A stretch of 63,021 bases of DNA, filler included. It is 7 parts of 7 records of this genome, joined end to end, with 100 filler letters (N's around TTAATTAATTAA, not from the genome) between each part and the next. Parts side by side here need not be neighbours in the genome. Positions count along the whole stretch, not along the records: positions 43,568 to 63,021 come from SRR20825019_2692; 6 more parts are not named here. The stretch is one strand, 5' to 3'. This document shows positions 6,487 through 57,818 of the stretch, one piece after another; the first letter of the stretch is position 1; each line of letters begins with the position of its first letter. The notes beneath the pieces are model-generated. The model searched no databases. It was not told the DNA's origin and saw nothing but the letters and a program-made list of their open reading frames with translations. The position numbers were made by a program, and so were the translations under genes.

Positions 6487-6539
6487 ACTGCACCGCACAA
6501 TAAATGGCTTCGAAAGCCTGTCAACTCGCATTCCCGCCA

Positions 6540-6567
6540 CTTGCGATACCCCGCCCACTCCCCATAT
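6540..6567 (+). promoter_or_regulatory. RpoH (sigma32) promoter of clpB
   Basis: CTTGCG-N14-CCCCATAT upstream of a heat-shock gene. Confidence 0.7.
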
Positions 6568-6736
6568 CTGGGATGTGGGTTCCGGATGCCACAATCGGGT
6601 CCGGCCCCCTTCCAAGACGGAACGCAATCGGCGATGCTGTAATGATCGTCCGCGCATTCCGGAAAGAGGCTCACGTGCCGCCATATTGGGGCACACGGAG
6701 CTGTATCGGCAACCTTGCGGTACGAAGGAGACGACC

Positions 6737-7933: not shown

Positions 7934-8033
7934 NNNNNNNNNNNNNNNNNNNNNNNNNNNNNNNNNNNNNNNNNNNNTTAATTAATTAANNNNNNNNNNN
8001 NNNNNNNNNNNNNNNNNNNNNNNNNNNNNNNNN
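7934..8033. other. Artificial contig linker
   Basis: N-run, TTAATTAATTAA (stops in six frames), N-run; 100 bp. Confidence 0.99.
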
Positions 8034-14492: not shown

Positions 14493-14592
14493 NNNNNNNN
14501 NNNNNNNNNNNNNNNNNNNNNNNNNNNNNNNNNNNNTTAATTAATTAANNNNNNNNNNNNNNNNNNNNNNNNNNNNNNNNNNNNNNNNNNNN
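14493..14592. other. Artificial contig linker
   Basis: N-run, TTAATTAATTAA, N-run. Confidence 0.99.
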
Positions 14593-31100: not shown

Positions 31101-32199
31101 GCATCAGCCCTCAGCAAGCGAACATCAAGCACTAGGAGAGCGTAATGAGCGACTCCAGAAACGTATTGTACAACTACTAGATAACCTCGAACTGTGCCAG
31201 AAGGAGATGGCCCAGGCACAACAGCTCCAAGCTCACGCCGAGCAAAAGCTTGAGGCCAACATTCAACAACAACATCAACAGCAAGATGTCGCCACGATTA
31301 CGTCCCCTAAGAATCACCAACATGGCAGTTCCCCATCAGCAACCACCCCCAGAGGATTCCAACATTTCAAAGATACAATGGTATCGGCGATGGAGAATTC
31401 TAACGCCGAACTGCAACGAGACAGCACTCGGTTTAAGACACCTCCTGTTGGTAGCGGTGCCGCCACTAATGGCAAGGCCCGGCCTGCACCGCCACAATCT
31501 TCCTCTACTAGTAAAAATGCTACTACTACTGGTGGTGTTGGAGGAGGGGGTGTGTTGTCCTTCCAGGCGTTAAAGGAACAAGAGGTGGATCAACTACGAG
31601 CCTTTTACAAGGATAAACATGAGCAAATATTCAGGGCACTTTGTACTAAGCAGCAGGAGCTGGTTAAGAGGATGTATGTCGACTTTGAGGGGCGCGTTCA
31701 ACGCGAGAGGAGTAGGGCTAATGAGTTGGAGGAGAAGCTAGCAGATGTTACCTCTGGATATGTAAAGAGGGATCACAACAACAACAATAATATCACTAGC
31801 CCCTCATCATCAACCATCAGCAGCAGGAACATCGCACAACCTCCTGCTGCTAGTGGAACGGGGGGTAAAGCCTCGACCTTTATGACCAGGCCTTCGTCCG
31901 CCTCGGCAACTCAAAGGCGACCCGTAGTACAGCCCTCACATATCACAACCCACCACCACCTACCACCCTCCTCCTACAACCACCCCCACTCTCCAACGAC
32001 CCTTGCCACCCCCACTAAGGACCCCACACACCTCCGTGCCGTGAACCCAAATCGCGGTAAATCAAGCCACGATCGCAACCCCATCACGGCGATGCAGGGG
32101 CTCTCTGGCTCATCCCTTCCCACTGATCACGGCGCCAACCGGTACCACTCAGAAGACGAAGCGTTCTCTGGTAAGCACAACAATCATCAACAACGCTAG
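28177..32199 (+). CDS. Large eukaryotic WW-domain, coiled-coil, low-complexity protein (probably 5' truncated)
   Basis: [32 protein letters not shown] domain; heptad-rich E/Q/K region; open frame of about 4 kb with no introns. Confidence 0.85.
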
Positions 32200-43467: not shown

Positions 43468-43567
43468 NNNNNNNNNNNNNNNNNNNNNNNNNNNNNNNNN
43501 NNNNNNNNNNNTTAATTAATTAANNNNNNNNNNNNNNNNNNNNNNNNNNNNNNNNNNNNNNNNNNNN
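43468..43567. other. Artificial contig linker
   Basis: N-run, TTAATTAATTAA, N-run. Confidence 0.99.
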
Positions 43568-43570
43568 TCA

Positions 43571-43596
43571 GCTACACCACACGCTGGGACACGATC
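43571..43596 (+). mobile_element. IS terminal inverted-repeat-like end (IS256-family-like), left contig edge
   Basis: GCTACACCACACGCTGGGACACGATC; 22/26 identical to the reverse complement of 62996-63021; family call from recollection only. Confidence 0.6.
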
Positions 43597-43698
43597 ATCG
43601 TGGGTCCGCCAATGCGGTCCCATCACAACGCCGATCGCCAAATGCGCATTTGGTCCGACGTCATTCAATACCCTTGCGGACATTTCATGGTCGCACTG

Positions 43699-44673
43699 TC
43701 AGGACATTTCAGCCAGCAGACACGCCGTATCGCCGTCGACGATGAGTGTTTTGACGATGCCACTCTTCAGAAGGGCAAGTGTTGCGTCAGCCTTCTCCAA
43801 ACCACCCGAGAGCAGGACCGTATGGGTCCCGCGCAGCGTTTCGAAATCAACGGCAAGCGTGCGATGATTCAACTCATGATCCACCGGCGTTCCATTCTTG
43901 TTGAAGAAAATGCCGTTCGTGTCGCCGACCGCTCCGGCGGCGTGCAACTCGTCGAGCTCGGCCTGGGAAATCATGCCGGATTGCCGCAGGAGCGAGCGCT
44001 TCGTGAGTTCGCCCACGGAAATGATCGCCAGATCGGGCTGACGCGCCATGTTCAGCACGGATTGCACAGTGGTTTGAGACAATAGCACGTCGCGGTCGCG
44101 CGGGGTGTTGGCAATGAAAGGCACCGCGAGGAAATAGCCCTCTGCGCCGGTGGCGCGGGCGAGCGCCTGCACCACTTCAAAAGGATTGAACGCGCTGTTG
44201 GCGGTCAGAGATCCCATCAGGCTGACAAACCGCGCATGCGGCGCACTGACGCCTGCCAGATTGCGGGTGATCTGGTCCAGCGTTCGTCCCCATCCCGTGC
44301 CGATTATCGCTTTGGGATGGCGATGAAGATACTCGCGCAGAAGCCTGGCGGCGAGCGAGCCAACGGCCCGGCGCGGATAGTCCACGAAATGTCCGGGCAA
44401 TGCATCGCTGCCGGAAAGACCAAGCGTTGGCGAACAGATGCAGCGTTCAAGCGCGAATCGCTGCCGGAGCTTGTTTTCGATCTGCAGAAGGCCGGTGCTC
44501 CCGGGATCGATCGAAATTGAGACAATGCCTGCGTCCTTGGCTTCCTGCAGCAGCTTGTTGACGCGGGCGCGAGTCGTGCCAAGGCGGCTGGCCGTCTCTT
44601 CCTGGTTGAGCCCGCCGACATAGTAGAGCCACGCTGCACGGCCCATCAGTTCGTAATCATCATTGTCCTTCAT
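43699..44673 (-). CDS. SorC/DeoR-family (LsrR/CggR-like) sugar-phosphate-binding repressor
   Basis: RAAWLYYVGGLNQEETASRLGTTRARVNKLL HTH; GTGWGRTL; GAVGD; LIVDGDTA. Confidence 0.93.
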   Translation of the reverse strand: MKDNDDYELMGRAAWLYYVGGLNQEETASRLGTTRARVNKLLQEAKDAGIVSISIDPGSTGLLQIENKLRQRFALERCICSPTLGLSGSDALPGHFVDYPRRAVGSLAARLLREYLHRHPKAIIGTGWGRTLDQITRNLAGVSAPHARFVSLMGSLTANSAFNPFEVVQALARATGAEGYFLAVPFIANTPRDRDVLLSQTTVQSVLNMARQPDLAIISVGELTKRSLLRQSGMISQAELDELHAAGAVGDTNGIFFNKNGTPVDHELNHRTLAVDFETLRGTHTVLLSGGLEKADATLALLKSGIVKTLIVDGDTACLLAEMS

Positions 44674-44725
44674 GCTTCGCTTTTAGCCGTTGTCTCCAAC
44701 TCTGACAATCGAATGAATGGCCAAT

Positions 44726-44760
44726 AATTACATTTGTATCGAAGCTTGACAAAAGTAATT
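44726..44760. promoter_or_regulatory. Probable operator overlapping the -35 (TTGACA) of the catabolic operon
   Basis: AATTACATTTGT-N11-ACAAAAGTAATT inverted repeat (11/12 match) containing TTGACA at 44746-44751. Confidence 0.65.
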
Positions 44761-44837
44761 CAGAGACGCAAACTTGCCAGGTGGACGCGGTTAGGAGGAC
44801 TGCGCACACGTCAATTCCGAAGAGGAGGGAATAGAAT

Positions 44838-45785
44838 ATGTCCAGATACATGTCCGCCTATGTCATGAGCGCCACGCTGTTTGCCGTCGGTTCCGGCGCA
44901 GCCATGGCCCAGGACAGCCTTGATGTCGCCTGGGTGCATTCCAATGCCGCGGCACAATCCGAACAGCGCGTGAAGGCCGGCTTTGAGGAATGGTTGGGCG
45001 AGAATGGCTATGACTGGAATGTGAGCTTCCTGGACAGTCAGGGCTCGGGCGAGGCGACGGCATCGAATCTGCAGGACGCGGTTTCGCGCGGGGTCGACGC
45101 TATCATCATCACCATGTCGGATCTGCGCGCTTCGAAGGCTGCAATCGACGTTGCCCTTGAGGCCGGCGTGCCGGTTTTCTCCGTCGACAGCGGCTATATC
45201 GACGGCGTGCAGGTGGATGTGACGACGAATAACTGGGCCATGTCCGCTGACGTATCGCCCTATCTGCTCGATCAGATGGGCGGCGAGGGCAACCTGATCT
45301 TCCTGCGCATGGCCGAGCATCACGGCACACGCAAGCGCGGCGATGTCATGCAGATGGTGCTGCAGGAATATGGCGATGTGAATGTGCTTGCTGAACACAA
45401 TATCGACTATACCGCCTTCTTCGAGGACACGACGTCCACGATGCAGGACTATGTTGCTCGCTTCGGCGAGGATATCGATGCTGTATGGGCGCCGTGGGAC
45501 GAGCCGGCCCAGGCCGCGATCAATGTGATGAAGGCCGCCGGCCTGACCGACGTAAAGGTGATCGGCATCGATGGTCACCCGCAGGCTCTTGCCGAGGTTT
45601 GCAAGCCTGACAGCATGATGATCGCAACCGTCAGTCAGCCGTTTGAAGAAATGGGCGCCCAGGTCGGCGACTGGATCGAGCAGATAGTCGGCGAGGGCAA
45701 GGCCCGCGAGGATGTGATCCCCAGCGACATCGTCTATCTCGATGCGCCGCTCGTGACCAAGGCGAACTGCAAGGACTTTATGTAG
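44838..45785 (+). CDS. Sugar ABC transporter substrate-binding protein (RbsB-like, CUT2)
   Basis: Signal peptide, GVDAIII, VIGIDG, ATVSQP; type-I periplasmic binding fold. Confidence 0.92.
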   Translation: MSRYMSAYVMSATLFAVGSGAAMAQDSLDVAWVHSNAAAQSEQRVKAGFEEWLGENGYDWNVSFLDSQGSGEATASNLQDAVSRGVDAIIITMSDLRASKAAIDVALEAGVPVFSVDSGYIDGVQVDVTTNNWAMSADVSPYLLDQMGGEGNLIFLRMAEHHGTRKRGDVMQMVLQEYGDVNVLAEHNIDYTAFFEDTTSTMQDYVARFGEDIDAVWAPWDEPAQAAINVMKAAGLTDVKVIGIDGHPQALAEVCKPDSMMIATVSQPFEEMGAQVGDWIEQIVGEGKAREDVIPSDIVYLDAPLVTKANCKDFM

Positions 45786-45797
45786 TCCGGTTCCTCC

Positions 45798-45836
45798 CCG
45801 GCAGGCGGGCCGCGCTTTGTTTTCGCGGCCTGCCGG
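45798..45836 (+). other. Intra-operonic stem-loop after the SBP gene
   Basis: CCGGCAGG..GCCGCG / CGCGGCCTGCCGG bulged hairpin, no U-tail. Confidence 0.45.
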
Positions 45837-45878
45837 CTGCCAGATATCCCAATCCAACACTTCGACAGGAAGGCACGC

Positions 45879-47399
45879 ATGTCCGTGCATCTCTCCGATA
45901 TCGTTATGGAATTTCCCGGTACGCGGGCGCTTGACGGCGTGAATGTAACCTTCGGCTTCAACGAGGTTCACGGGCTTGTGGGCGAGAATGGCGCGGGCAA
46001 AAGTACCTTCGTCAATATTCTTGGCGGTTCGCTTCAGCCAACTGCGGGCGGCGTCTCCATCTCTGGAAAACCCGTCATTCTCTCCAGCCCGCGCGCCGCA
46101 TTGGCGCATGGCATTGCCCATGTCAGCCAGGAGGGCAGCCTTGTTCCCTCGCTGACGGGGGCAGACAACATCATGCTTGGCAGCGAACCGAAACACGGTT
46201 TTGGTATTCTTCATCGCAGCGCCCTGCGCGCCGAGGCCCGGCGCCTGCTCGCGGAGTGGTTTCCCGGTGTCGAGATCGATCTCGACCGTCCGATCACCGA
46301 CCTGCCGATGGCGGAGCGCAAGGTCATCGAGATTGTACGCGCGCTCAGGGGCGATATCCGGCTTCTGATCCTCGACGAGCCGACGGCAACGCTTGAGGCG
46401 CGCGAAAAGAAACGGCTTTGGGACATTATCCGCCTCCTGCCGCAAAAGGGGGTCGGTGTTGTCCTGATTTCCCATTTCCTTTCGGAAGTCGTCGCGCTTT
46501 CGGACAGGGTGACTGTTTTGCGCGACGGAAAGCATGTCGGCACGCTTGATGGCGCGGATGCCAGCGAGGCCACGTTGACGGATATGATGCTCCGTCGAGA
46601 AGACGCGCAGGATGCGCCGACCGCAACCACGCCGGTCGCGACACGATCTCCGGCAGGCGAGGGCAGCGTCGTCCTGTCCGTTTCTGATTGGCGTGCTGGA
46701 TCAATCCAAGTGGATCGGTTCGCGTTGCAGGCCGGAGAAATTGTCGGCCTTATCGGGCTGACAGGGGCCGGTCATTTCGGCTTTGCGCGTTCGCTCTACA
46801 CGCGGCACGGTGTTGTGAAGGGTAAGATTGCGGTCGCCGGAACAGAGGTTCGTCAGTCCGGTGTGCGGGCGATGCAGCGCGCGGGTGTGGCTTTCGTGCC
46901 GGACCACCGCATAGAAAACGCACTGGCGGGTGACGGAACCGTGGTCGAGAACCTCACCATGGTTCATTCCAGTTTCGCTGCGACGAGCGGTATTCTGAGC
47001 CACGGCAAGGAGCGTCGGGAGGCCAGCCGCATCATCAAGCTTCTGAACGTGAAGACGCCCAATCAGAGACAGCTTATCCGCAATCTGTCCGGCGGGAACA
47101 AGCAGAAGGTTTCGATCGGAAAATGGCTCTACGGAATCGGGAATCCCTACAAGGTCCTGATCTTCATCGAGCCCACCGAAGGCGTCGATATCGGCGCGAA
47201 AATGGAGATTTATGCCCATATGCGCAGGCTTGCGGCCGATGGCGCCGCAATCCTGATCGCGTCTTCCGATCTCGGGGAAATCGCGCAGGTCTGTGATCGG
47301 GCCATTCCCTTCGTCCATGGCCTTCCCGGCGCCGACATTCCGGCATCCGAATTCTCCGAAGGCCGGTTCATTCAAGCCATTTCTGGAGATGCAGCATGA
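45879..47399 (+). CDS. Sugar ABC transporter ATP-binding protein (two NBDs, RbsA-like)
   Basis: GENGAGKS, LILDEPT, ISHFL, LSGGNKQK. Confidence 0.94.
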   Translation: MSVHLSDIVMEFPGTRALDGVNVTFGFNEVHGLVGENGAGKSTFVNILGGSLQPTAGGVSISGKPVILSSPRAALAHGIAHVSQEGSLVPSLTGADNIMLGSEPKHGFGILHRSALRAEARRLLAEWFPGVEIDLDRPITDLPMAERKVIEIVRALRGDIRLLILDEPTATLEAREKKRLWDIIRLLPQKGVGVVLISHFLSEVVALSDRVTVLRDGKHVGTLDGADASEATLTDMMLRREDAQDAPTATTPVATRSPAGEGSVVLSVSDWRAGSIQVDRFALQAGEIVGLIGLTGAGHFGFARSLYTRHGVVKGKIAVAGTEVRQSGVRAMQRAGVAFVPDHRIENALAGDGTVVENLTMVHSSFAATSGILSHGKERREASRIIKLLNVKTPNQRQLIRNLSGGNKQKVSIGKWLYGIGNPYKVLIFIEPTEGVDIGAKMEIYAHMRRLAADGAAILIASSDLGEIAQVCDRAIPFVHGLPGADIPASEFSEGRFIQAISGDAA

Positions 47400-48391
47400 C
47401 GCCGCACCGCTCTTCACCGTCCGAGCCGGTCAAAACGCCCGCAGGCAGACCCGTCCGATCGGACTTCATTCAGCGTTATTCCACGCTGGGCGTTCTCATC
47501 CTCATGTTCATCGGCTTTTCGCTGTTCGTGGACAGGTTCCTGACGCCATTCAACCTGACCAATATCCTGCAGCAGATCGCGATCCTGACGATCGTCGGCT
47601 CGGGGTTGACCATTGGCTTTGCGGCGAAGGAGATCGATCTTTCGGTGGGCTTCACCGTGGGGCTTTCCGGCATCCTCGTTCCCCTTCTCCTGACGTCCGG
47701 ATATTCTATCGCAGTGGCGCTTCTGGCGGGGCTGGCGGCGGGCGTTCTGGTCGGCGTCGTGAACGGCTTTCTCATCACCAGGGTGGGGATACCCTCGCTG
47801 ATCGCGACGCTTGCCATGGGATCGATCCTGTTCGGGATAAACTTCCTGATGACCGGCGGCCGCGCAATCTATGGCGGTCTGCCCGATGCCTATCTCGCGC
47901 TCGGCCAGGGACGCATCTTCGGTATTCCGAACCTTGCGTTCTTCATGGTGATTGCCGTGGCGATCGCCTGGTTTGTGATGGAGCGGACGGTTTTCGGACG
48001 CTACGTCTATGCCGTCGGCGGCAATCAGAAGGCGGCCGAGCTTTCGGGGGTGCGCATCACCTTTTACCGGATGGCCGCACTGGTGCTTGTCTCCGTCTTT
48101 GCGGTCGTTGCCGGCGCGCTTCTCGCCTCGCGGTTGGGTTCGGGCCAGCCCAATGTGGGCGAACGCTACCTGCTCGACGGGCTTGCCACCGTCTTTATCG
48201 GGATGACGATGTTCCGCCCCGGCACGGCTACCGTGCTCGGCACGCTTTGCGGCGCGCTCTTCATCGGCGTGATCAATAACGGGCTGAACCTGATCGGGAT
48301 GGATACCTACATCCAGAACATCGTGAAGGGCGTCATCATTCTAATCGCGGTCGCGATCGTCTCGCGCACCACCAAACTCAATCTTCTCTGA
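47396..48391 (+). CDS. Sugar ABC transporter permease (RbsC-like)
   Basis: IDLSVG, IPSLIATL, FGRYVYAVGGN..AAELSG. Confidence 0.94.
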   Translation: MTPHRSSPSEPVKTPAGRPVRSDFIQRYSTLGVLILMFIGFSLFVDRFLTPFNLTNILQQIAILTIVGSGLTIGFAAKEIDLSVGFTVGLSGILVPLLLTSGYSIAVALLAGLAAGVLVGVVNGFLITRVGIPSLIATLAMGSILFGINFLMTGGRAIYGGLPDAYLALGQGRIFGIPNLAFFMVIAVAIAWFVMERTVFGRYVYAVGGNQKAAELSGVRITFYRMAALVLVSVFAVVAGALLASRLGSGQPNVGERYLLDGLATVFIGMTMFRPGTATVLGTLCGALFIGVINNGLNLIGMDTYIQNIVKGVIILIAVAIVSRTTKLNLL

Positions 48392-48401
48392 GGATGCCAT
48401 C

Positions 48402-49457
48402 ATGACTGCACCCAGCGATACCGTCGTATCGGACAAGGCGCCGCGTTCGAACACCGAGCTTCTCCCGCTTTACACGGAAATGCGCCGTGTCCGGACTTTC
48501 GAGGAACGTGTCGGCGAACTCTTTGTGCGCGGCCAGTCCGCGGGCTCCATGCTTCACCTGTCGATTGGCGAAGAAGCTGCCGCCGTTGGCGTTGCCTCGC
48601 TGATGCGCGATGGCGACACGTTCACAACCCATCACCGCGGTCACGGCATTTTTCTGGCCCGCGGCGCGGATCCGAAGCGGATGATGGCGGAGATCGGAGG
48701 CAAGGAAGAAGGCTATTGCCGGGGCAAGGGCGGTTCGATGCACATTGCCGATATGGGGCTTGGCCATCTTGGCGCCAATGCCATCGTCGGCGGCGGCATT
48801 GCCGCTGTGGTCGGCGCCGGCCTGGCCTCCAAACGGGCCGGGAAGGGCGCCGTCTCCGTTGCCTTCTTCGGCGATGGCGCGATGCAGCAGGGGATTCTCT
48901 ACGAGAGCATGAATATGGCCGCGCTCTGGGATCTGCCGGTTCTGTTCGTCTGCATCAACAATCAGTATGGCATGGGAACACGCATCGAGCAGGCCACCAA
49001 GGGTCGCGCCTTGCATGAGCGCGGACTGGCTTTTGGACTGAACGCGGAAACGGTGGACGGCCTCGACGTTCGCGATGTCCGCTCCGCGGCAGCCCGTTTC
49101 ATCGATGAAGCGCGCAACGGCAAGCCGGGCTTCCTCGCGATCGAGTGCTACCGTTTCTTCGGACATGCGCGAATGGACAAGAGCCCGTATCGCAGCGAAG
49201 AGGATGAAGCCAGGGGGCGGGCCAAGGATCCGGTGCTTCACGCCCGCAAGGCCCTGCTTGAGCATGGCGAGGCCGATGAAAAGGCGCTCGATGTGATCGA
49301 CGCCGAAATCGCACGCGAGATGGACGCAACCATCGACTTTACCGTCGCAAGCACCGAGCCGCCGCTCGGATCGATGTTCCGGGATGTCTATGCGCCTGGC
49401 GAGCCCGAACCGGAGCCGGTGGCCACGCGTATTGACCGAATTCTGGCAGGGGAGTGA
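48402..49457 (+). CDS. ThDP-dependent dehydrogenase E1 alpha subunit (AcoA/PdhA-like)
   Basis: HLSIGEEA, HHRGHG, GKGGSMH, GDGA...NN ThDP motif, YRFFGH. Confidence 0.93.
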   Translation: MTAPSDTVVSDKAPRSNTELLPLYTEMRRVRTFEERVGELFVRGQSAGSMLHLSIGEEAAAVGVASLMRDGDTFTTHHRGHGIFLARGADPKRMMAEIGGKEEGYCRGKGGSMHIADMGLGHLGANAIVGGGIAAVVGAGLASKRAGKGAVSVAFFGDGAMQQGILYESMNMAALWDLPVLFVCINNQYGMGTRIEQATKGRALHERGLAFGLNAETVDGLDVRDVRSAAARFIDEARNGKPGFLAIECYRFFGHARMDKSPYRSEEDEARGRAKDPVLHARKALLEHGEADEKALDVIDAEIAREMDATIDFTVASTEPPLGSMFRDVYAPGEPEPEPVATRIDRILAGE

Positions 49458-49461
49458 GCCA

Positions 49462-50451
49462 ATGGTCGAGATGACTTACAGAGACGCGCTCAAGCAGGCG
49501 TTGATCGATACGATGACCGAGGACGACAGCGTCGTCGTGATCGGCGAGGAAGTCGGACGCTATGGCGGGGCCTATGGCGTGACCAAGGGGCTTTACGAGA
49601 CCTTCGGCGCGGAGCGCATGATCGACACCCCCATTTCCGAACCGGCGATCGTCGGCGCGGCCGTCGGGGCGGCAATGTCGGGCATGCGGCCGGTTGCGGA
49701 ACTGATGTATGTCGACTTCATCGGCATGACCATGGATCAACTGGGCAACCAGGCTGCCAAGATCCGCTATATGTTCGGCGGACAGATCGGCGTTCCGATG
49801 GTGCTGCGAACCCAGGGCGGGACCGGACGTTCGGCCGGCGCGCAGCATTCCCAGTCACTGGAAGCCTATGTCATGCATACGCCGGGCCTCCGGCTGGTCA
49901 TGCCGGCAACGGTTTCTGACGCCTATCACCTCTTGCGTCAGTCCCTGAAGCAGCCGGATCCGGTCGTGTTCATCGAGCACAAGGCGCTTTACACCCTGAA
50001 AGAGGATGTCGATCTGAGCGCGCCTGCGCCGGACTGGGGCAAGGCCGCCGTGCGTCGTATGGGCGATGACCTTGTGATCGTGACCTATTCCCGCCAGGTC
50101 CATAATGCCATGGCGGCGGCCGAGGCCCTGGCGAAGAATGGAATAGAAGCAACGGTGATCGATCTGCGGTCGCTCAACCCCCTGGATTTCGACACGGTGC
50201 GCGCGCATGTTGAGCGGGTCGGGCGGGCGATGGTCGTCTCCGAAGGCGTGATGACGGCCGGGGTCGGCGCGGAACTCTCCGCGCGCATCCACGAAGAGTG
50301 CTTCGACTTCCTTGCCGAACCCGTCATCCGCGTCTGCGGTGAAGATATCCCGATCTCCGTGTCGGTCGAGCTGGAGAAGAATTCGGTCCCGACGGCGCCC
50401 TTCATTCAGGATGTGGCTCAACGGCTGTTCGCGGACAGGAGAGTAGCATGA
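49462..50451 (+). CDS. ThDP-dependent dehydrogenase E1 beta subunit (AcoB/PdhB-like)
   Basis: GEEVG, DTPISE, AAKIRYMFGG, GAQHSQSLE, FIEHK, IDLRSLNPLD. Confidence 0.94.
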   Translation: MVEMTYRDALKQALIDTMTEDDSVVVIGEEVGRYGGAYGVTKGLYETFGAERMIDTPISEPAIVGAAVGAAMSGMRPVAELMYVDFIGMTMDQLGNQAAKIRYMFGGQIGVPMVLRTQGGTGRSAGAQHSQSLEAYVMHTPGLRLVMPATVSDAYHLLRQSLKQPDPVVFIEHKALYTLKEDVDLSAPAPDWGKAAVRRMGDDLVIVTYSRQVHNAMAAAEALAKNGIEATVIDLRSLNPLDFDTVRAHVERVGRAMVVSEGVMTAGVGAELSARIHEECFDFLAEPVIRVCGEDIPISVSVELEKNSVPTAPFIQDVAQRLFADRRVA

Positions 50452-52001
50452 CAACTGTCACCCTTTCCATGCCGCGCCTGGGTGAAACCATGGAAGAAGG
50501 CACGGTCTCGGGATGGCTTGTTGCCGAGGGCGAGGAATTCGCGCGCGGCGCGGCGCTGATCGAGTTCGAGACCGACAAGACGGCGGTGGAATATCCCGCA
50601 CTTGGCGCGGGCCGGCTGGTGAAGCAGCTTGCCGCCAAAGGCGATCTGATCCGTCTTGGCGAACCGATCGCGGAAATCGACCTCATGGGCGGTGATGACT
50701 GGGTCAGCAGCGGCGATGCGACGACGGATACAGCCGGTCAGGCTAAAGGTTCGGCCGAGGGAAGGCAGGGCGATACCGTCGTCATCGACCTGTTGATGCC
50801 GCGTCTCGGAGAGACGATGGAGGAAGGCCGGATCATGGGCTGGATGGTCGCCATCGGTGTGCATTACGAACGCGGCGCCTCGATCATCGAGGTCGAAACG
50901 GACAAGACCGTTGCCGAGTTTCCCGCCCTTGTGCCAGGCCGGATTGTCGAAACCCTCGTCGAACCCGGCGATATGGTCAAGGTGGACATGCCGATCGCGC
51001 GTATCGAGGTTGCGCGATCGGATGCGCCGCAAGCTGATGAAGCCGGAGAGGCGAAGACCTCTGCCCCCGAACATCAAACCGCAGACCGGCAGCCCGCCGC
51101 TTCGGCCCAGGCGCGCGCGGGAGGTCCCGTGCGGGCAACGCCGCTTGCCCGCCGTGCTGCACGCCGGGCCGGTCTCGATATCGCTTCGGTCAGCGGGACG
51201 GGACGGCGCGGACGCATCGAGCTTGCCGATGTCGAACGCGCGCTAACCGGCCACGTGGGCGCCTTGGCGTCCAAGAGCTGGGGCCCTGCTTCGGGCGCGC
51301 CGGTCCTGCTGGTCCATGGTTTTGGCGGAGACCGGTTGACCTTCGATCAGTTGGGCAAGGTTCTTGGACGGACTGGGCTTTCCGTGCGCGCGGTCGATCT
51401 GCCCTCTCACGGCAAGACCGACGTTCAGGCCCGCAATTTCGAAGATATCGTCACCGCGCTGACGGGCGAGCTGGACCCACAGCGCCCCGTGCATCTGGTT
51501 GGCCATTCACTTGGCGCAGCCGCATGCGTTGCCGCAGCCGCCCGGCATGGCGGCGCGGCGTCATTGACGTTGATCGCGCCCGCCGGGCTCGGCCTGGGTA
51601 TCGACGCGGAGTTCATTTCCGGCATGGCGCGGGCTGAAAGCGCGGGTGCTGTCGGGCATTTGCTGCGGCGTCTGTCCTCACGCGCGGAGACGTTCTCTCG
51701 CGAGATTGTTTCCGAGATCCATGCGGAATTGGCAAAGGGGCGTCTTGCGGATCTTGCGCAGGATATCTGCAGAGGCGGTCAGCAATCCGTGAATGTGCGG
51801 ACCGATCTGGCGCAGCTTGCCGGCGAGATCCCGGTGCGGACCCTCGTCGGCATGCAGGACCGGATCGTGGACTGGCGCGACGCCATCGACGTTTCATCGG
51901 CCATAGCGGTCCATGTTTTCCCGCGTGCCGGCCATATGCCGCATTGGGATGCCCCCGCCGAGGTCGCTACAATCCTGGAGAAGGAACTGAACCATGTCTG
52001 A
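50448..52001 (+). CDS. E2-like fusion: two lipoyl domains, peripheral-subunit-binding domain and alpha/beta hydrolase (AcoC-like)
   Basis: ETDKTAVE and ETDKTVAE lipoyl-Lys sites; ATPLARR...GTGRRGRIELADV PSBD; HGFGG, GHSLG, QD and AGH hydrolase triad; no HxxxDG acyltransferase core. Confidence 0.9.
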   Translation: MTTVTLSMPRLGETMEEGTVSGWLVAEGEEFARGAALIEFETDKTAVEYPALGAGRLVKQLAAKGDLIRLGEPIAEIDLMGGDDWVSSGDATTDTAGQAKGSAEGRQGDTVVIDLLMPRLGETMEEGRIMGWMVAIGVHYERGASIIEVETDKTVAEFPALVPGRIVETLVEPGDMVKVDMPIARIEVARSDAPQADEAGEAKTSAPEHQTADRQPAASAQARAGGPVRATPLARRAARRAGLDIASVSGTGRRGRIELADVERALTGHVGALASKSWGPASGAPVLLVHGFGGDRLTFDQLGKVLGRTGLSVRAVDLPSHGKTDVQARNFEDIVTALTGELDPQRPVHLVGHSLGAAACVAAAARHGGAASLTLIAPAGLGLGIDAEFISGMARAESAGAVGHLLRRLSSRAETFSREIVSEIHAELAKGRLADLAQDICRGGQQSVNVRTDLAQLAGEIPVRTLVGMQDRIVDWRDAIDVSSAIAVHVFPRAGHMPHWDAPAEVATILEKELNHV

Positions 52002-52332
52002 GACAGCATTTTCCGATAAGCTGAAAACCGCAAAGTCCCGCATGGGCGGATTCGCCAAATCGGCGCCGGAACTGATGCGTGGCTTCGCCGCCGTTTCCGG
52101 TGCAGCCACGAAAGCCGGCCATTTTTCCGCGGCCGACCGGGAACTGTTCGCCGTATCGATAGCGGTTGCAACACGCTGCGAGGACTGCATCCTCTATCAT
52201 GTGGAGGCCGCAAAGCGCCACGGCGCCGAAGAGGCCGTTCTTGTCGAGGCGCTGGAGGTCGCGGTCGAGATGGGCGGCGGACCGGCGGTGATGTATGCGG
52301 GAAAGGCGCTGGAGGCTTTCCGCGTTCTGTGA
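51994..52332 (+). CDS. CMD/AhpD-family protein with CxxC
   Basis: RELFAVSIAVATRCEDCILYH AhpD core; MGGGP; overlaps the E2-like gene. Confidence 0.9.
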   Translation: MSETAFSDKLKTAKSRMGGFAKSAPELMRGFAAVSGAATKAGHFSAADRELFAVSIAVATRCEDCILYHVEAAKRHGAEEAVLVEALEVAVEMGGGPAVMYAGKALEAFRVL

Positions 52333-52362
52333 ACGGTGCAAGCCGCAACAAGGGAGGAGACC

Positions 52363-53850
52363 ATGGTCTATTTTTTGACAGCCGATGGCGGCACTGAAAG
52401 TCTGCGCGCGCGGGTCTACGATCTGAAAGGCAAATGTCTCGGGACGCAGGCTGTTGCCTATCAGACGGATTTCAAACCCGGACGGGTTGAGCAGAACCCT
52501 GAAGACTGGTGGGCGAATTTCGTCGCCGCCGCGCGCGGCGCGATCGCGCAATCGGGCGTAAATCCGCCTGAGATAGAGGCGATCTGCTATGCCACAACCT
52601 GTTGCACCGTTGTCGCGCTCGATGAAAATGGACGCGCTCTGCGCCCGGCGATCATGTGGATGGATGTCCGGGCTCATGATGAAGCGCAGGCCGTGTTGGC
52701 GACGGGCGATGCCGCGCTGGAACTGAATGGCGCTGGCCACGGGCCGGTCTCGGCGGAATGGATGATACCGAAAGCGCTCTGGCTCAAGCGCAACGAACCA
52801 CACATCTTCGGCAAGGCGCATCGTATTTGTGAGTATCAGGACTTTTTGACCTACCGCCTGACCGGTGAATGGGCCGCGAGCCTCGATAATGCCGGCTTGC
52901 GCTGGCACTACCGCTCCCGCCAGGGCGGTTTTGCCGCCGGGCTTTTGAAGGCGCTCGACCTTGGAGAACTGAAGGGGAAATGGCCGAACCGGGTGGTCGC
53001 GCCCGGCGATGTGATCGGGACGCTGAGCTCGTCGGCCGCCAATGAGCTCGGTCTTTCGACTTCGGTCAAGGTGGTGCAGGGCGGCGCCGACGCCCTGATC
53101 GGAATGATCGGCCTCGGCGTGCACAAGCCGGGCCAGCTGGCAATGATTACCGGTTCGTCGCATCTGCAGTTCGGCGTGACCGAAAACCCGATTCATGCGC
53201 ACGGCGTTTGGGGCAGTTATGCCGATATCGTCTATCCGGATCGCTGGATCGTGGAAGGCGGGCAGACCTCGACGGGGTCGATCATCAACTGGCTTTCGCG
53301 CCTGACCGGCGGTCCCCTGAATTTCGAGGAACTTAACCGGAAGGCGGCGGCGCTTGAGCCTGGATGCGACGGGCTGCTGGTGCAGGATCATTTTCAGGGC
53401 AACCGCACACCCCATACCGATCCCCTGTCGCGCGGGGCCATTGTCGGGCTGACGCTGGGCCATGAGATGCACCATATCTTCCGTGCTGTGATGGAAGGGA
53501 TCGGCTTCGGTACGCGCGCCATTCTGGATGCATTCGGGGCCGCCGGCTATTCCGGCGAGGAAATGACGGTCGGCGGCGGCGCGGCGGCCTCCGATCTCTG
53601 GCTGCAGATCCACGCGGATACGGCGGGCATTCCCGTAAGCATTCCCGCATCAGCGGATGCGCCATCCACCGGCTCCGCGGTGCTTGCCGGCGTCGGCGCA
53701 GGCCGGTTCGCATCCATTGATGAAGGTATTGGAGCGATGGTGCACAAGGGTCGGGTAATCGAGCCTCGCCGCGAGAATGTCGAAAAATACAATGAAATCT
53801 ATGCGCGCTATGTTGCCCTCTATCCGGCGCTCAGGGAGATTCTCGCATGA
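52363..53850 (+). CDS. FGGY-family carbohydrate kinase (ribulokinase/xylulokinase-like)
   Basis: ADGGTES, EQNPEDWW, IMWMDVRA, GGADA, QGNRTP, GGGAAS..WLQIHAD. Confidence 0.92.
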   Translation: MVYFLTADGGTESLRARVYDLKGKCLGTQAVAYQTDFKPGRVEQNPEDWWANFVAAARGAIAQSGVNPPEIEAICYATTCCTVVALDENGRALRPAIMWMDVRAHDEAQAVLATGDAALELNGAGHGPVSAEWMIPKALWLKRNEPHIFGKAHRICEYQDFLTYRLTGEWAASLDNAGLRWHYRSRQGGFAAGLLKALDLGELKGKWPNRVVAPGDVIGTLSSSAANELGLSTSVKVVQGGADALIGMIGLGVHKPGQLAMITGSSHLQFGVTENPIHAHGVWGSYADIVYPDRWIVEGGQTSTGSIINWLSRLTGGPLNFEELNRKAAALEPGCDGLLVQDHFQGNRTPHTDPLSRGAIVGLTLGHEMHHIFRAVMEGIGFGTRAILDAFGAAGYSGEEMTVGGGAAASDLWLQIHADTAGIPVSIPASADAPSTGSAVLAGVGAGRFASIDEGIGAMVHKGRVIEPRRENVEKYNEIYARYVALYPALREILA

Positions 53851-54590
53851 CCGTGTGGGACAGGTTCTCCCTTGCCGGTCAGACCGCACTCGTCACCGGC
53901 GGCGCGAAAGGCATTGGCGCGGCGATCTCGAAAACCCTTGCCGAAGCTGGTGCAACTGTCACGATTGCCGATCTCGACATCGTTGAGGGCGAGGCGCTGG
54001 CCGGTCGACTTGGCGGTCACTTCATCCACCTCGATGTCTCGGATTTCGACGCTTGCGCTGCTGTCGCGCAAAGCATCACGCCGGATGTTCTGGTGGCAAA
54101 TGCGGGGATTGTTCACAACGCGCCAACCGCAGAGATCGATCCTGCCGACTGGCGGCGCGTGATCGACGTCAACCTGTCAGGCGTCTTCAATACGCTACGG
54201 GCTTTCGGTCCGGCAATGGTGGCGCGCGGATCGGGCGCCTGTGTCTGCACCTCGTCCATGTGCGGCGAAGTATCGGTGTGGCCGCAGCCGCAGGCCGCCT
54301 ACAACGCGGCGAAGGCAGGGGTAAACCTGCTCGTCAAGTCGACCGCGGTCGAATGGGCGCGCTCGGGCGTGAGGGTCAACGCGATTGCGCCCGGATATAC
54401 CGCTACGGAGCTCACGCTTGCCGGGCGTTCCAGGCCGGAATGGTTCGAAGTCTGGATGGACCGCACGCCGATGGGTCGTCTCGGCGAACCGCGGGAGATT
54501 GCAGACAGCGTGCTGTTCCTGTGCTCCACCGCTGCAAGTTTCATCACCGGCACGGTTCTGACCGTCGACGGCGGCTACACGGCCCTATGA
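53847..54590 (+). CDS. SDR oxidoreductase, polyol-dehydrogenase-like
   Basis: TGGAKGIG, ANAGI, PQPQAAYNAAK, VDGGY. Confidence 0.9.
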   Translation: MTVWDRFSLAGQTALVTGGAKGIGAAISKTLAEAGATVTIADLDIVEGEALAGRLGGHFIHLDVSDFDACAAVAQSITPDVLVANAGIVHNAPTAEIDPADWRRVIDVNLSGVFNTLRAFGPAMVARGSGACVCTSSMCGEVSVWPQPQAAYNAAKAGVNLLVKSTAVEWARSGVRVNAIAPGYTATELTLAGRSRPEWFEVWMDRTPMGRLGEPREIADSVLFLCSTAASFITGTVLTVDGGYTAL

Positions 54591-54604
54591 GAATGGAGGA
54601 GAGA

Positions 54605-55357
54605 ATGACGGAAACAAGAACGGCGCTTGTTACGGGCGCAAGCCGGGGCATTGGCGCCGCCATCGCGACGGGGCTGGCAAAGCGCGGCTATGATCTCGTT
54701 CTTAACGATATCGAGCGGCAGAAGGCCGATCTGGAGGCGGTCGCGGAAAACATTCGCGGCATGGGGCGGCGGGTCGAAATCGTATTCGCCGATGTCAGCG
54801 ATAAGGCTCAGGTGGAAGCGATGGCTCGCAAGGCGCTCGACGCCTTCGGCCAGATCGATGCTCTGGTGAACAATGCCGGCATTCTGATCGCGGGTGAGGT
54901 TGACGGCCTTCCCGAAGCCAGTTGGGATGCTGTGATGGACATCAACGCCAAGGGTTCGTTCATGGTCATTCAGTCGTTTTTGCCGTCGATGAAGAAACGC
55001 GGTTACGGCCGGATCGTGAACATCGCTTCGATCGGGGGCAAGCATGGCGCCCCGCAACAGGCGCATTATTCCGCGTCCAAGGCGGCGGTCATGGGCTTTT
55101 CCCGCGTCCTGGCGCAGGAGGTCGGGCCGCTCGGCATCACTGTCAACTGCGTTTGCCCGGGCATTATCCTGACGGATATGGGCCGCGTGAACCTTGACGA
55201 CCCAGCGGTGCGCGAGGCCTGGCAGGAGAAGACCGCCATGGCAAGGATCGGCGTTCCCGAGGATGTCGTCGGCCCCGTCGCCTTCTTCGCATCCGACGAT
55301 GCGGGCTTCGTGACCGGTCAGACTTTGAATGTCGATGGCGGTATCGTGTTTTCTTGA
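54605..55357 (+). CDS. SDR oxidoreductase (FabG/diol-dehydrogenase-like)
   Basis: TGASRGIG, NNAGI, YSASK, GQTLNVDGG. Confidence 0.92.
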   Translation: MTETRTALVTGASRGIGAAIATGLAKRGYDLVLNDIERQKADLEAVAENIRGMGRRVEIVFADVSDKAQVEAMARKALDAFGQIDALVNNAGILIAGEVDGLPEASWDAVMDINAKGSFMVIQSFLPSMKKRGYGRIVNIASIGGKHGAPQQAHYSASKAAVMGFSRVLAQEVGPLGITVNCVCPGIILTDMGRVNLDDPAVREAWQEKTAMARIGVPEDVVGPVAFFASDDAGFVTGQTLNVDGGIVFS

Positions 55358-55647
55358 GAAGGGTAACTGGCCCAACGCCGACGGCTCGGGTTTAAAGTCT
55401 TCGAACGAACAGTGCCATAAGCACGGATATCGGCGGGCGAGGTTGGAAACCGGTCTTCGCTCGTTCATTTCCGCGCGCGCTACGGATCCAGTGTTCGTGA
55501 GTCATGCGTGCGTTCATGTCAGACCGTTCCCATTACAGTGTCCTCGCCAGGGGGAGGCTTCGGCGCGGTGTCAAAAGGCGTGGAGAATTCCCCGCCTCGA
55601 AGTGACCCCACGAAATGATGATCTTAACCCCACCGCAACCAGAACAG

Positions 55648-55666
55648 GATTGAAGTAGCTTCAATC
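55648..55666. promoter_or_regulatory. Auxiliary LacI-type operator-like palindrome
   Basis: GATTGAAG-TAG-CTTCAATC. Confidence 0.55.
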
Positions 55667-55781
55667 TTCGAGGGGTGGAGTATTTTGTTCTAATAATTCC
55701 TATTAAAATTCTATCCTGAAGGGAGAAATCTCCGAACTTTGGAAGAAAATTCCTTTGCCTCTGATAGAATTTCCCACCTAG

Positions 55782-55799
55782 AATTGAAGCGCTTCAATT
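55782..55799. promoter_or_regulatory. LacI-type operator
   Basis: Perfect 18-bp palindrome AATTGAAGCGCTTCAATT with central CG, immediately upstream of the LacI-HTH gene RBS. Confidence 0.85.
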
Positions 55800-55812
55800 T
55801 GGAGTGGGAACA

Positions 55813-57000
55813 ATGAACAAGCGGCCAACGATTGCCGATGTAGCAAAAGCAGCCGGCGTATCCACCGGCACGGTCTCGAATTTCCTGAACGAGACCCGGC
55901 CGATAAAGCCGGCTACCGCGGAGCGAATCGAAAACGCTATCCGCAGCTTGACCTATCGTCCGAGCGCCTTTGCGCGGGCATTGCCGCTGCGTGCAGCCCG
56001 CCATGTCGAAAAATCGGATGACCTACCTCGGCTGCTCGTTGTTGGTCATATCTGCGTCGATTATCTCTGCCGCGTTCCCGTTCTGCCCCATCGCGACGAC
56101 CGCGTCAGCGCTGACGTCATAGAAAAAGCCATGGGCGGCCCCGGCGCAAATCTTGCGGTGGCCGCTGCCGGCCTTGGCGAACCATACGGTTTAAACGTCG
56201 ATCTTGCCACCGCGGCGGGCGACGACGCAGACAGTGAATGGGCGCTCAACTGCCTGAACCGGTGCGGCGTCGACACCATTCCCCTCAGAAAGCCCAAAGC
56301 CAACCGGCTGCCCAAGGCGATGGTAATGATCGAGGCCAATGGCAGTCGAACGATCGTTGCAGAAACGTTCGAACTCACCGAGATCGACCTGACCGGAAAG
56401 ATCGATATCGAAGCCCCCGAGCATCCCTCATGCCTCCATATTGAAGGGTTTCAATATGAGAATATGCGTTCTTCCATCGAAATGTTCCGTGAGGCCGGAT
56501 GGCGGATAAGCCTCCATGGCGCAGGCTTGCCGGCAAAGGCCAGAACGCCGGAAGCTTTCGCGAGACTGCTCGAGCGCATCGACATGACGTTCGTGAATGA
56601 TGAAACCGTCCGCGCGATCTTCAGCATCAATGCGCCGCTTGCCGCGATGATCGATGAGTTCGCACGTGTCCTGTCGCGTATCAAGCAGCGCGGCGATGTT
56701 GTGCTGACGCTTGGTCCTTTCGGCGCGGTCGTGTTTCCGCGCAAGGCCATGAGCTACATCGAAGTGCCGGCGCTCGCTGTTGAGCCGATCGACGTCACCG
56801 GCGCAGGCGATGCCTTTGCAGGAATTTTTCTCAATCTCTGGCTTCACGGCGAAACGCTCGAACAGGCGGCGCGCTACGCCACGATCGGCGCCAGCCTTTC
56901 GACAACGGCGGTCGGGGCGCAGGTCCGCATTTCGTCCACCTCTGAGATTCAGGCCTTGCTGCCGTCGCTGTCGTTAAAGCCGACCCGCGCGGTCTCATAA
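55813..57000 (+). CDS. LacI-family HTH fused to a PfkB/ribokinase domain
   Basis: PTIADVAKAAGVSTGTVS...YRPSAFARAL; MGGPGANLAVAAA, LTLGPFGA, DVTGAGDAF. Confidence 0.9.
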   Translation: MNKRPTIADVAKAAGVSTGTVSNFLNETRPIKPATAERIENAIRSLTYRPSAFARALPLRAARHVEKSDDLPRLLVVGHICVDYLCRVPVLPHRDDRVSADVIEKAMGGPGANLAVAAAGLGEPYGLNVDLATAAGDDADSEWALNCLNRCGVDTIPLRKPKANRLPKAMVMIEANGSRTIVAETFELTEIDLTGKIDIEAPEHPSCLHIEGFQYENMRSSIEMFREAGWRISLHGAGLPAKARTPEAFARLLERIDMTFVNDETVRAIFSINAPLAAMIDEFARVLSRIKQRGDVVLTLGPFGAVVFPRKAMSYIEVPALAVEPIDVTGAGDAFAGIFLNLWLHGETLEQAARYATIGASLSTTAVGAQVRISSTSEIQALLPSLSLKPTRAVS

Positions 57001-57041
57001 CTCCGCCCATTGCGCGAACACGAAAAGACAAGGGAACAGAT

Positions 57042-57818
57042 ATGCCATCGAAAAAAATACTATTGGTCGGCGAGAGCTGGGTCACGTCCGAAACCCACTA
57101 CAAGGGTTTCGATCAATTCGGCAGCGTTCACTTCCATCTGGGCGCAGAGCCGCTTGTCGCCGCGCTGAAGGCAAAGGGCATCGAAGTCGACTACATGCCC
57201 GCGCATGAAGCGGCCGAAGCATTCCCCTTCGAAAAATCCGGCCTCGAGCCTTACTCGGTCGTTATTCTCTCAGATATCGGCGCCAATACCCTGCTTCTGC
57301 CGCCATCCGTCTGGATCCACGGAAAGCCCGTTCCCAACCGCTTGAAAATGCTGCGCGAATGGGTCAGTGAAGGCGGCGGCCTGTTCATGGCCGGTGGCTA
57401 TTTCAGTTTCCAGGGCATCGACGGCAAGGCGCGTTGGCGTTCCACGCCGGTTGAAGACACGCTGCCGGTCAACTGCCTTCCCTATGATGACCGGCTCGAA
57501 GTGCCGGAAGGTTTCCGCCCGGTTCTCGCCAAGGGTCAGTCACACCCAATCTTCCATGGCCTGGAAGGCGAATGGCCAATCCTGCTCGGCGCCAACGAGG
57601 TTGTCGCCAAGGCGGACGACAGCGTCGAGGTTCTGGCAACGCTTCCCGAGGGTGACGGCGGCCATCCCCTTCTTGTAACCGGCCAATACGCCAAGGGCCG
57701 CACGGTCGTCTGGACCTCGGATATCGGCCCGCACTGGCTGCCGACGCCATTCGTCGAATGGTCCGGTTACGGTGTTCTGTTCGCCAACATTCTCCGCTGG
57801 GCGGCGCGCGAGATCTGA
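57042..57818 (+). CDS. Class I glutamine amidotransferase-like protein (DUF1355/GATase1_like)
   Basis: LLVGESW..HYKGFDQF, ILSDIGANTLL, GGGLFMAGGYFSFQG, WTSDIGPHW. Confidence 0.85.
   Translation: MPSKKILLVGESWVTSETHYKGFDQFGSVHFHLGAEPLVAALKAKGIEVDYMPAHEAAEAFPFEKSGLEPYSVVILSDIGANTLLLPPSVWIHGKPVPNRLKMLREWVSEGGGLFMAGGYFSFQGIDGKARWRSTPVEDTLPVNCLPYDDRLEVPEGFRPVLAKGQSHPIFHGLEGEWPILLGANEVVAKADDSVEVLATLPEGDGGHPLLVTGQYAKGRTVVWTSDIGPHWLPTPFVEWSGYGVLFANILRWAAREI

Follow-up and report, generated by a model that had tools for sequence, protein, structure and literature searches.

What is the role of a small AhpD-like protein whose gene directly follows the E2 gene of a lipoate-dependent enzyme complex, in an operon devoid of a gene for dihydrolipoamide dehydrogenase (E3)? 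This question is raised by the 63-kb stretch of DNA analysed here (the window), in which a gene at positions 51994 to 52332 encodes a protein with the CMD/AhpD core (in the following, the CMD protein) behind an E2 of the AcoC type. A preliminary description had located this gene where E3 would be and had considered its product a possible alternative reoxidant of the lipoyl arms. The observations compiled below argue against that role and suggest, with a probability of roughly 0.5, that the CMD protein is an accessory AhpD-type dithiol oxidoreductase drawing on the operon's own dihydrolipoyl E2. The two genes concerned are the following:

51994..52332, plus strand: CMD/AhpD-core protein of 112 residues with E50, C62-E-D-C65 and H69, supported by Pfam and NCBIfam profiles and by an AlphaFold2 (AF2) model
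50448..52001, plus strand: AcoC-type E2 of 517 residues with two successive lipoyl domains, a peripheral subunit-binding domain (PSBD) and an alpha/beta hydrolase domain (Abhydrolase_6)

Translation of 51994..52332 yields E50, followed after 11 residues by C62-E63-D64-C65 and after 3 further residues by H69. The Pfam CMD profile (PF02627) reaches 66.7 bits against a cut-off of 23, and the AhpD-core model TIGR00778 (ahpD_dom), the only one of six matching NCBIfam models to pass its cut-off, reaches 38.9 bits against 27.8, which bears out the earlier assignment as an AhpD-like CxxC protein with an E-x11-CEDC-x3-H motif. Likewise, the overlap with the stop of the E2-like gene was found as described, since the ATG at 51994 lies within the last codons of the open reading frame (ORF) 50448..52001 and 8 nt, ATGTCTGA, are common to the CMD start and the AcoC-type E2 end. 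E50, C62, D64, C65 and H69 are invariant in all 83 sequences of the CMD clade, whose members are 62-96% identical, and the motif is therefore a family property and not a chance match. According to passages of PMC3141380, the proton relay of Mycobacterium tuberculosis AhpD comprises Glu118, Cys130, Cys133 and His137, i.e. the same Glu-x11-Cys-x2-Cys-x3-His arrangement (E118/C130/C133/H137 = E50/C62/C65/H69), and all four of these AhpD-like relay residues are present and invariant in the clade (83/83). The fifth relay residue given in the same passages, His132 in M. tuberculosis and Tyr50 in PA0269 (PMC3141380), is represented by Asp64 in 83/83 sequences; TM1620 likewise features an Asp at this position (C-D-D-C).

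The AF2 model of the CMD protein, computed from 45 sequences, comprises six helices at a mean predicted local distance difference test score of 92.8, with C62 immediately preceding helix 63-75 and C65 within the first turn of that helix; it thus displays the all-helical fold of about 110 residues with CxxC at a helix start that characterizes the lpg0406/TM1620/RclX type. By sequence, the nearest solved proteins are apo-lpg0406 of Legionella pneumophila (5dik; 42% identity over 105 residues, phmmer E 2.2e-21) and RclX of Pseudomonas aeruginosa (7y4r). By structure, lpg0406 is the top Foldseek match to the model (VIA Z 11.4), the best matches are those to TM1620 (1vke, Z 12.9; 1p8c, Z 12.8 over 69 residues at 1.0 Å), and RclX follows at Z 7.9. 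M. tuberculosis AhpD (1gu9) is a weak match at Z 4.2 among Foldseek's own matches, a value that is not read as indicating a different fold. Because TM1620 and lpg0406 lead by structure and M. tuberculosis AhpD is found at Z 4.2, the CMD protein is assigned to the branch of small CMD/AhpD-like proteins rather than to that of the mycobacterial protein. With lpg0406 (5dik/5dip) it shares length class, CxxC-x3-His and six-helix fold, although the motif is C-P-G-C there and C-E-D-C here, and the CxxC-x3-H motif is also common to TM1620 (1vke/1p8c) and RclX (7y4r). Presumably, lpg0406 stands apart from any E2 operon, and we know of no lipoyl-enzyme operon that includes TM1620 or RclX. The subfamily in which the CMD protein is thereby placed, that of lpg0406 and TM1620, is probably hexameric; for RclX, a homohexamer was modelled, as stated in a passage of PMC7950407.

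The mycobacterial system differs from the present one in gene context. In M. tuberculosis, ahpD works together with ahpC under the same promoter and does not adjoin an E2 gene, whereas the CMD gene does, and in the chain Lpd-DlaT(SucB)-AhpD-AhpC the donor E2 is part of a housekeeping complex that has an E3 of its own. To our knowledge, this antioxidant chain of mycobacteria and corynebacteria, which borrows the housekeeping complex, is the only well-studied case of an AhpD that draws electrons from a lipoylated E2. M. tuberculosis AhpD has a length of about 177 residues. It forms a trimer with C-terminal catalytic helices, as described in part of PMC3141380, while the CMD protein has only 112 residues and no peroxiredoxin is annotated around its gene in the annotated loci L001 and L002; the traits of the mycobacterial type, i.e. 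a larger protein with C-terminal catalytic helices and a gene working with ahpC, do not apply to the CMD protein.

A scan with the CMD protein, restricted to one genome per species, retained 80 loci, which together with two annotated plasmid loci (L001, L002) gave 82 CMD loci that were sorted by tblastn and Pfam. Four operon types emerged. Type 1 (67/82) comprises a regulator, a transporter, the alpha and beta subunits of a thiamine diphosphate (ThDP)-dependent E1, AcoC, CMD and an FGGY kinase, usually followed by short-chain dehydrogenases/reductases (SDRs). Type 2, encountered in six loci (L061, L011, L015, L020, L077, L008), features a free lipoyl protein and a free E2 catalytic domain besides both E1 subunits. 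It is complete in L061:417-10330, where E1 alpha, E1 beta and a free lipoyl protein of 80 residues (Biotin_lipoyl, 71 bits) are followed by a GlpD-like dehydrogenase, a free 2-oxoacid_dh catalytic domain (about 221 residues), a 488-residue Fe-ADH_2 protein, an FGGY kinase (31% identity), a HAD-like protein and, finally, CMD. A class II aldolase is also present in L011, L015 and L020, the E1 alpha orthologue of L020 is situated about 2.2 kb past the locus edge, and the coordinates of L077 match the type 2 layout provided that contig C28 is the contig of this locus. No PSBD was detected in those type 2 ORFs that were scanned with Pfam. Type 3 (3/82; L059:3199-10330, L078:2554-10330 and L051) consists of E1 alpha, E1 beta, a transaldolase, an AcoC-like E2, a full transketolase, a HAD phosphatase (in L078 and L051) and CMD as the last gene; a single genome, that of Rhodophyticola sp., holds two copies of it, L051 and L078. 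Type 4 is represented by L056 alone (1/82), with E1 beta, a classical E2, an SDR, a thiolase, an acyl-CoA dehydrogenase, an APH kinase and CMD. Three of the 82 loci lie on contigs too short to be classified.

Of 67 filtered loci, 60 have a CMD start that overlaps the end of the E2 gene (by 8 nt in 40 loci and by 4 nt in 15), and in the other seven the two lie at most 12 nt apart, which confirms the tight coupling to the lipoylated E2. The CMD and E1 beta trees are quick IQ-TREE runs supported by Shimodaira-Hasegawa-like approximate likelihood ratio tests (SH-aLRT) only, and the former has few columns and leaves many forks unresolved. It nevertheless joins 83 CMDs in one clade (SH-aLRT 94) apart from the distant homologues, with types 2 and 3 in a common subclade (93) and with L056 and L063, a locus discussed further below, nested within type 1. 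Since the CMDs of four operon types fall into one clade, the same gene has moved among operons that share only their E1/lipoyl/E2 parts.

More distant homologues were collected from an even sample of 301 alphaproteobacterial genomes, 30 of which contain a CMD homologue at E<=1e-12 (32-48% identity, the centre genome aside), and 20 of these distant loci were retrieved and scanned. Two of the 20 (L107, L118) encode E1 alpha, E1 beta, an E2 with lipoyl, PSBD and catalytic domains, CMD and a GlcD-like FAD-linked oxidase. Their CMD constitutes a separate lineage (42-49% identity) directly behind a classical E2, an arrangement far more frequent than the 0.04 cases or so in 20 that chance would yield by a rough estimate. 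In L107, a GntR regulator adjoins the cluster.

Is an E3 gene then missing from these operons, and is it replaced by CMD? Within the window, none of the 29 ORFs of at least 330 residues contains a pyridine-nucleotide-disulphide oxidoreductase domain, and tblastn with three E3 proteins returned nothing at E<=1e-5, so that the earlier remark that no dihydrolipoamide dehydrogenase lies on the contig holds, within the 63-kb window. In the same manner, tblastn with three E3 proteins revealed E3 in 0/82 CMD loci including flanks of about 10 kb, and in 0/20 loci of distant homologues. The sister clusters devoid of CMD, however, are devoid of E3 as well. An E1 alpha orthologue (64-81% identity) occurs in 18 of 251 genomes of one order and is accompanied by CMD in five of the 18; the CMD-less sister regions lack E3 in 13/13 cases, while 12/13 retain the FGGY kinase next to E1-E2. 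On plasmids, neither CMD nor E3 stands beside AcoC in any of four CMD-less AcoC clusters. The even sample holds 32 AcoC-type E2 genes in 29 of the 301 genomes. E3 lies within 5 kb of two of them (3.7 kb away, on the opposite strand), CMD stands beside one, namely that of the centre genome, which was chosen for its CMD, and 29/32 have no E3 within 5 kb and no CMD homologue nearby on the contig, as far as the contigs allow. Housekeeping E3 genes are present in all 29 of these genomes, and in each of five cluster-holding genomes TIGR01350 exceeds its cut-off in two or three places, all remote from the cluster. With E3 in 0/82 CMD loci, with 13/13 sister regions and 4/4 plasmid clusters devoid of both genes, and with 29/32 AcoC-type E2 genes of the even sample having neither partner nearby, there is no reason to expect an E3 gene next to AcoC in the alphaproteobacteria sampled, and CMD and E3 do not alternate. 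Hence, the proposal that CMD takes the place of E3 as alternative reoxidant is not supported, and what fails is the anticipated alternation of lpd and ahpD between homologous clusters (E3 in 0/82 CMD loci and 0/13 CMD-less sisters).

The E1 beta tree points in the same direction, with the reservation that its CMD-bearing rows stem from a CMD-based search, which biases the proportions on it. CMD-less clusters form a basal grade and one nested clade of six, the latter inside a clade of 70 rows (97) whose other 64 rows bear CMD. CMD thus looks like an add-on acquired by one gain and perhaps subjected to one loss, and, judged by these comparisons, it is dispensable for AcoC-type complexes.

The E2 itself retains a domain by which E3 may be recruited from elsewhere. 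With NF011457 it scores 367.2 bits against a cut-off of 307, which places it in the AcoC type, and Pfam detects two Biotin_lipoyl domains, Abhydrolase_6 and an E3_binding domain (45.1 bits, residues 228-263); the latter confirms the PSBD on which the preliminary description had based a possible recruitment of a housekeeping E3. That CMD can be dispensed with, that the PSBD is retained and that housekeeping E3 genes are present all argue for an accessory protein and not for a reoxidant. Its most likely partner is the dihydrolipoyl arm, given the redox motif, the coupling to E2 and the way in which the clade tracks E1, lipoyl and E2 components from operon to operon.

From family, fold and motif, translational coupling, the recurrent E1/E2 neighbourhood, the absence of E3 and the dispensability of CMD, we infer its electron donor, its acceptor and its physiological role as follows. 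Synthesis of the CMD protein would be coupled to that of the AcoC-type E2 in an E3-less ThDP/lipoate complex encoded by a sugar or polyol catabolic operon. In this complex, E1 would cleave a phosphorylated ketose or an acyloin and load the acyl group onto the lipoyl arm, which acyl transfer would then leave as a dithiol. Bulk reoxidation of the arm would be accomplished by a housekeeping E3 recruited via the PSBD, while the CMD protein would take part of the reducing equivalents via C62/C65, aided by E50 and H69, and pass them on to peroxides or disulfides, acting as a weak peroxidase itself or by way of a peroxiredoxin encoded elsewhere. Mycobacterial AhpD offers a precedent: as a passage of PMC8945050 reports with reference to Bryk 2002, it receives its electrons from an E2 that carries lipoamide and acts together with Lpd and NADH. 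In this proposal, a complex without a dedicated E3 would tend to build up reduced arms and reactive ThDP intermediates, and the shunt would protect it, with CMD as an accessory and not an obligatory subunit; the presence of CMD in just five of the 18 genomes with the E1 alpha orthologue indicates an accessory nature and thus fits a protective role.

Several observations weigh against this interpretation. The Asp at the His132 position implies that the relay is not identical to that of M. tuberculosis AhpD. One locus (L063, 1/82) consists of a CMD-FGGY pair alone amid housekeeping genes, and another (L070, 1/82, 20 kb long and with three neighbours covered by the Pfam scan) yields no tblastn match to the window's E1 or AcoC. 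No peroxiredoxin is annotated within the 21-kb annotated loci L001 and L002. Moreover, 18/20 distant homologues do not adjoin lipoyl enzymes, their neighbours ranging from SecA/epoxide hydrolase, rhodanese/ArsR and DsbB to ABC exporters and GFA, and most of the wider CMD family is still not tied to lipoyl enzymes. Finally, it cannot be told from gene neighbourhood whether CMD uses the lipoyl arm directly or is merely co-expressed. The suggested link to the arm has consequently gained comparative support, from four operon types each combining a ThDP-E1 with lipoyl/E2 parts and from the two of 20 distant CMDs behind an E2, without this distinction being made; so far, the embedding of CMD in E3-less lipoyl operons is a result of comparative genomics. 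A complex prediction for CMD with AcoC residues 112-270 (second lipoyl domain, linker and PSBD) scored 0.00 in two runs and weighs neither way.

Mere co-expression is the essence of the alternative that survives best, which we nevertheless regard as unlikely: a general antioxidant or thiol-stress protein that has no direct tie to the lipoyl arm, receives its electrons from thioredoxin, glutathione or housekeeping systems and is co-expressed merely because the pathway yields reactive aldehydes or peroxides. The closest solved relatives are indeed associated with stress, given that lpg0406 is possibly involved in the antioxidative response, according to the title of a paper cited in PMC7950407, and that RclX is controlled by RclR and responds to HOCl and HOSCN, by which it is induced, as reported in passages of PMC7950407. 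Rhodanese/ArsR, DsbB, GFA or epoxide hydrolase genes adjoin distant homologues, and the dispensability of CMD in related clusters is equally in line with such a function. Yet a general antioxidant role leaves unexplained why the clade accompanies E1, lipoyl and E2 components in four operons that otherwise differ and why the overlap with the E2 stop is conserved.

A more far-reaching version of the lipoyl-linked reading holds that E3-less alphaproteobacterial complexes have recruited a CxxC protein of their own that would dock on E2 or the lipoyl carrier and open an NAD-independent outlet to peroxides or disulfides; in type 2, where a free lipoyl protein occurs and no PSBD was seen, CMD may on this view even serve as the main route of arm recycling. 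This version we consider improbable. About equally improbable is a non-redox enzyme of the CMD superfamily, be it a decarboxylase, an isomerase or a tautomerase, whose substrate would be an intermediate derived from the sugar. True decarboxylases do exist in the superfamily, the gene is positioned between E2 and the FGGY kinase, and L063 pairs it with the kinase alone. Nevertheless, the PcaC decarboxylase model TIGR02425 scores 21.5 bits against an equivalog cut-off of 155.7, and the invariant CxxC, Glu and His are those of the redox branch, the decarboxylase branch being without them according to part of PMC3141380. Furthermore, no obvious small-molecule step is common to the four operon types, and E1-E2-FGGY is kept without CMD in the 12/13 related clusters mentioned above.

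That the CMD protein is a true E3 substitute, providing the main NAD-independent route by which dihydrolipoyl arms are reoxidised, is very unlikely. The absence of E3 within about 10 kb (E3 in 0/82 loci), the lack of a PSBD in the scanned ORFs of the free-lipoyl/free-E2-domain type and the AhpD precedent, which makes the chemistry possible (PMC8945050, in the passage referred to), speak for it. They are outweighed by the E3-less state of the CMD-less relatives (13/13), by the 29/32 AcoC-type E2 genes of the even sample with neither partner nearby, by the PSBD kept in the window's E2 and by the two to three E3 genes above cut-off elsewhere in 5/5 host genomes; in addition, a CxxC relay would need a stoichiometric terminal acceptor, for which peroxide would presumably be insufficient at catabolic flux. 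Similarly remote is a structural or regulatory E2 partner (assembly factor, redox sensor of the lipoyl state or PSBD occupant), which would accord with the translational coupling and with the stronger conservation of the 112-residue CMD across orders (62-86% identity, vs 39-68% for AcoC of the same loci) but not with a fully conserved redox motif that a pure scaffold would not need.

Returning to the accessory oxidoreductase, its presumed metabolic setting is defined by the genes around it:

43699..44673, minus strand: SorC/DeoR-type sugar-binding regulator, divergently transcribed (PF04198 Sugar-bind, 189.6 bits)
44838..48391, plus strand: sugar ABC transporter with binding protein (44838-45785), ATPase (45879-47399) and permease (47396-48391)
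48402..49457, plus strand: ThDP-dependent E1 alpha subunit (PF00676 E1_dh, 213.7 bits)
49462..50451, plus strand: E1 beta subunit (Transket_pyr, Transketolase_C; NF006667, 352 bits)
52336..53850, plus strand: FGGY carbohydrate kinase (FGGY_N, FGGY_C), XylB-like below cut-off
53847..54590, plus strand: SDR oxidoreductase 1 (adh_short_C2, 210.8 bits)
54587..55357, plus strand: SDR oxidoreductase 2 (adh_short_C2, 223.3 bits)

The binding protein of the transporter was recognized by Peripla_BP_4, while its ATPase and permease are named via synteny with the annotated loci L001 and L002. The start of E1 beta is taken to be the first ATG past the E1 alpha stop, the open frame extending back to 49384. 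The FGGY kinase ORF begins with a GTG at 52336, and the actual start is probably the in-frame ATG at 52363, 30 nt past the CMD stop, because it is preceded by the ribosome-binding-like GGGAGGAG.

As a whole, 43699-55357 combines a SorC regulator, a ribose-type ABC transporter, acetoin-dehydrogenase-like E1 subunits with AcoC, an FGGY kinase and two SDRs, and its gene order is kept across Rhodobacterales, Hyphomicrobiales, Azospirillum and others. The enzyme complex resembles the acetoin dehydrogenase system acoABC(L) in comprising E1 alpha, E1 beta and an AcoC-type E2 with lipoyl domain, PSBD and alpha/beta hydrolase. It differs therefrom in its location in a sugar operon with ABC transporter, FGGY kinase and two SDRs, in its two lipoyl domains, in the CMD gene behind E2 and in the lack of acoL/E3; in Bacillus and Klebsiella, acoL is the last gene of the classical aco operons. 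The operon seems to encode a sugar or polyol pathway not described before, and our guess is that a phosphorylated ketose or a 1-deoxyketose is converted to acyl-CoA and an aldose phosphate.

Close orthologues of the AcoC-type E2 have either one or two lipoyl domains, and this number is not strictly linked to the presence of CMD. The idea that CMD tracks the second lipoyl domain was rejected, as one- and two-domain E2s both occur with CMD; in 11 filtered CMD-less clusters, ten E2s align from about residue 96-115 (one domain) and one from residue 4. A requirement of CMD for both SDR genes was rejected as well, several CMD loci (e.g. L019, L038, L043 and L073) being without an SDR match. A promoter and terminator scan of 43500-57200 remained at background level, with 5 promoter-like elements against 3.5 expected and 13 terminator-like elements against 11.5. 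Megablast against plasmids gave four partial matches, which were of use for the annotation of L001 and L002 alone. Just 3' of the operon, 55804-57000 encodes a LacI-type helix-turn-helix domain (residues 9-54) fused to a PfkB/ribokinase-like domain, which replaces the usual periplasmic-binding-protein fold; this fusion is not kept with the operon in other loci.

The CMD protein itself is a plain member of a known family, and what is new is its repeated embedding in E3-less lipoyl operons: an AhpD-like gene is built into catabolic E1/E2 operons of several designs and translationally coupled to E2. A search of the open-access literature and bioRxiv retrieved no description of this operon, nor of a CMD/AhpD gene within catabolic E1/E2 operons of the aco type or any other, although subscription papers may exist. 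If the link to the lipoyl arm holds, these proteins would constitute a family of dedicated lipoyl-coupled thiol oxidoreductases and offer a handle on how E3-less 'orphan' lipoyl complexes manage reduced arms and reactive ThDP intermediates. Docking with an NAD-independent outlet, if true, would mean that catabolic carbon-carbon cleavage is wired directly to thiol or peroxide reduction, whereas for a merely co-expressed antioxidant the finding would be ordinary. Separately, the analysis draws attention to a widespread sugar or polyol pathway that uses an acetoin-dehydrogenase-like complex and is undescribed in the literature searched.

Elsewhere in the window, a ClpB-like ORF (Clp_N, AAA, AAA_lid_9) in the region 6308-10491 stops at 7981, after the first ATPase module; the 2.5 kb beyond it hold long ORFs on both strands without a Pfam match at 1e-5, and the second ClpB module was not found there. 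Two further ORFs are unusual for a stretch of bacterial chromosome, namely a 1337-residue ORF at 28186-32199 whose sole Pfam match is a WW domain (residues 108-137) and a 575-residue ankyrin-repeat protein encoded at 12813-14540.

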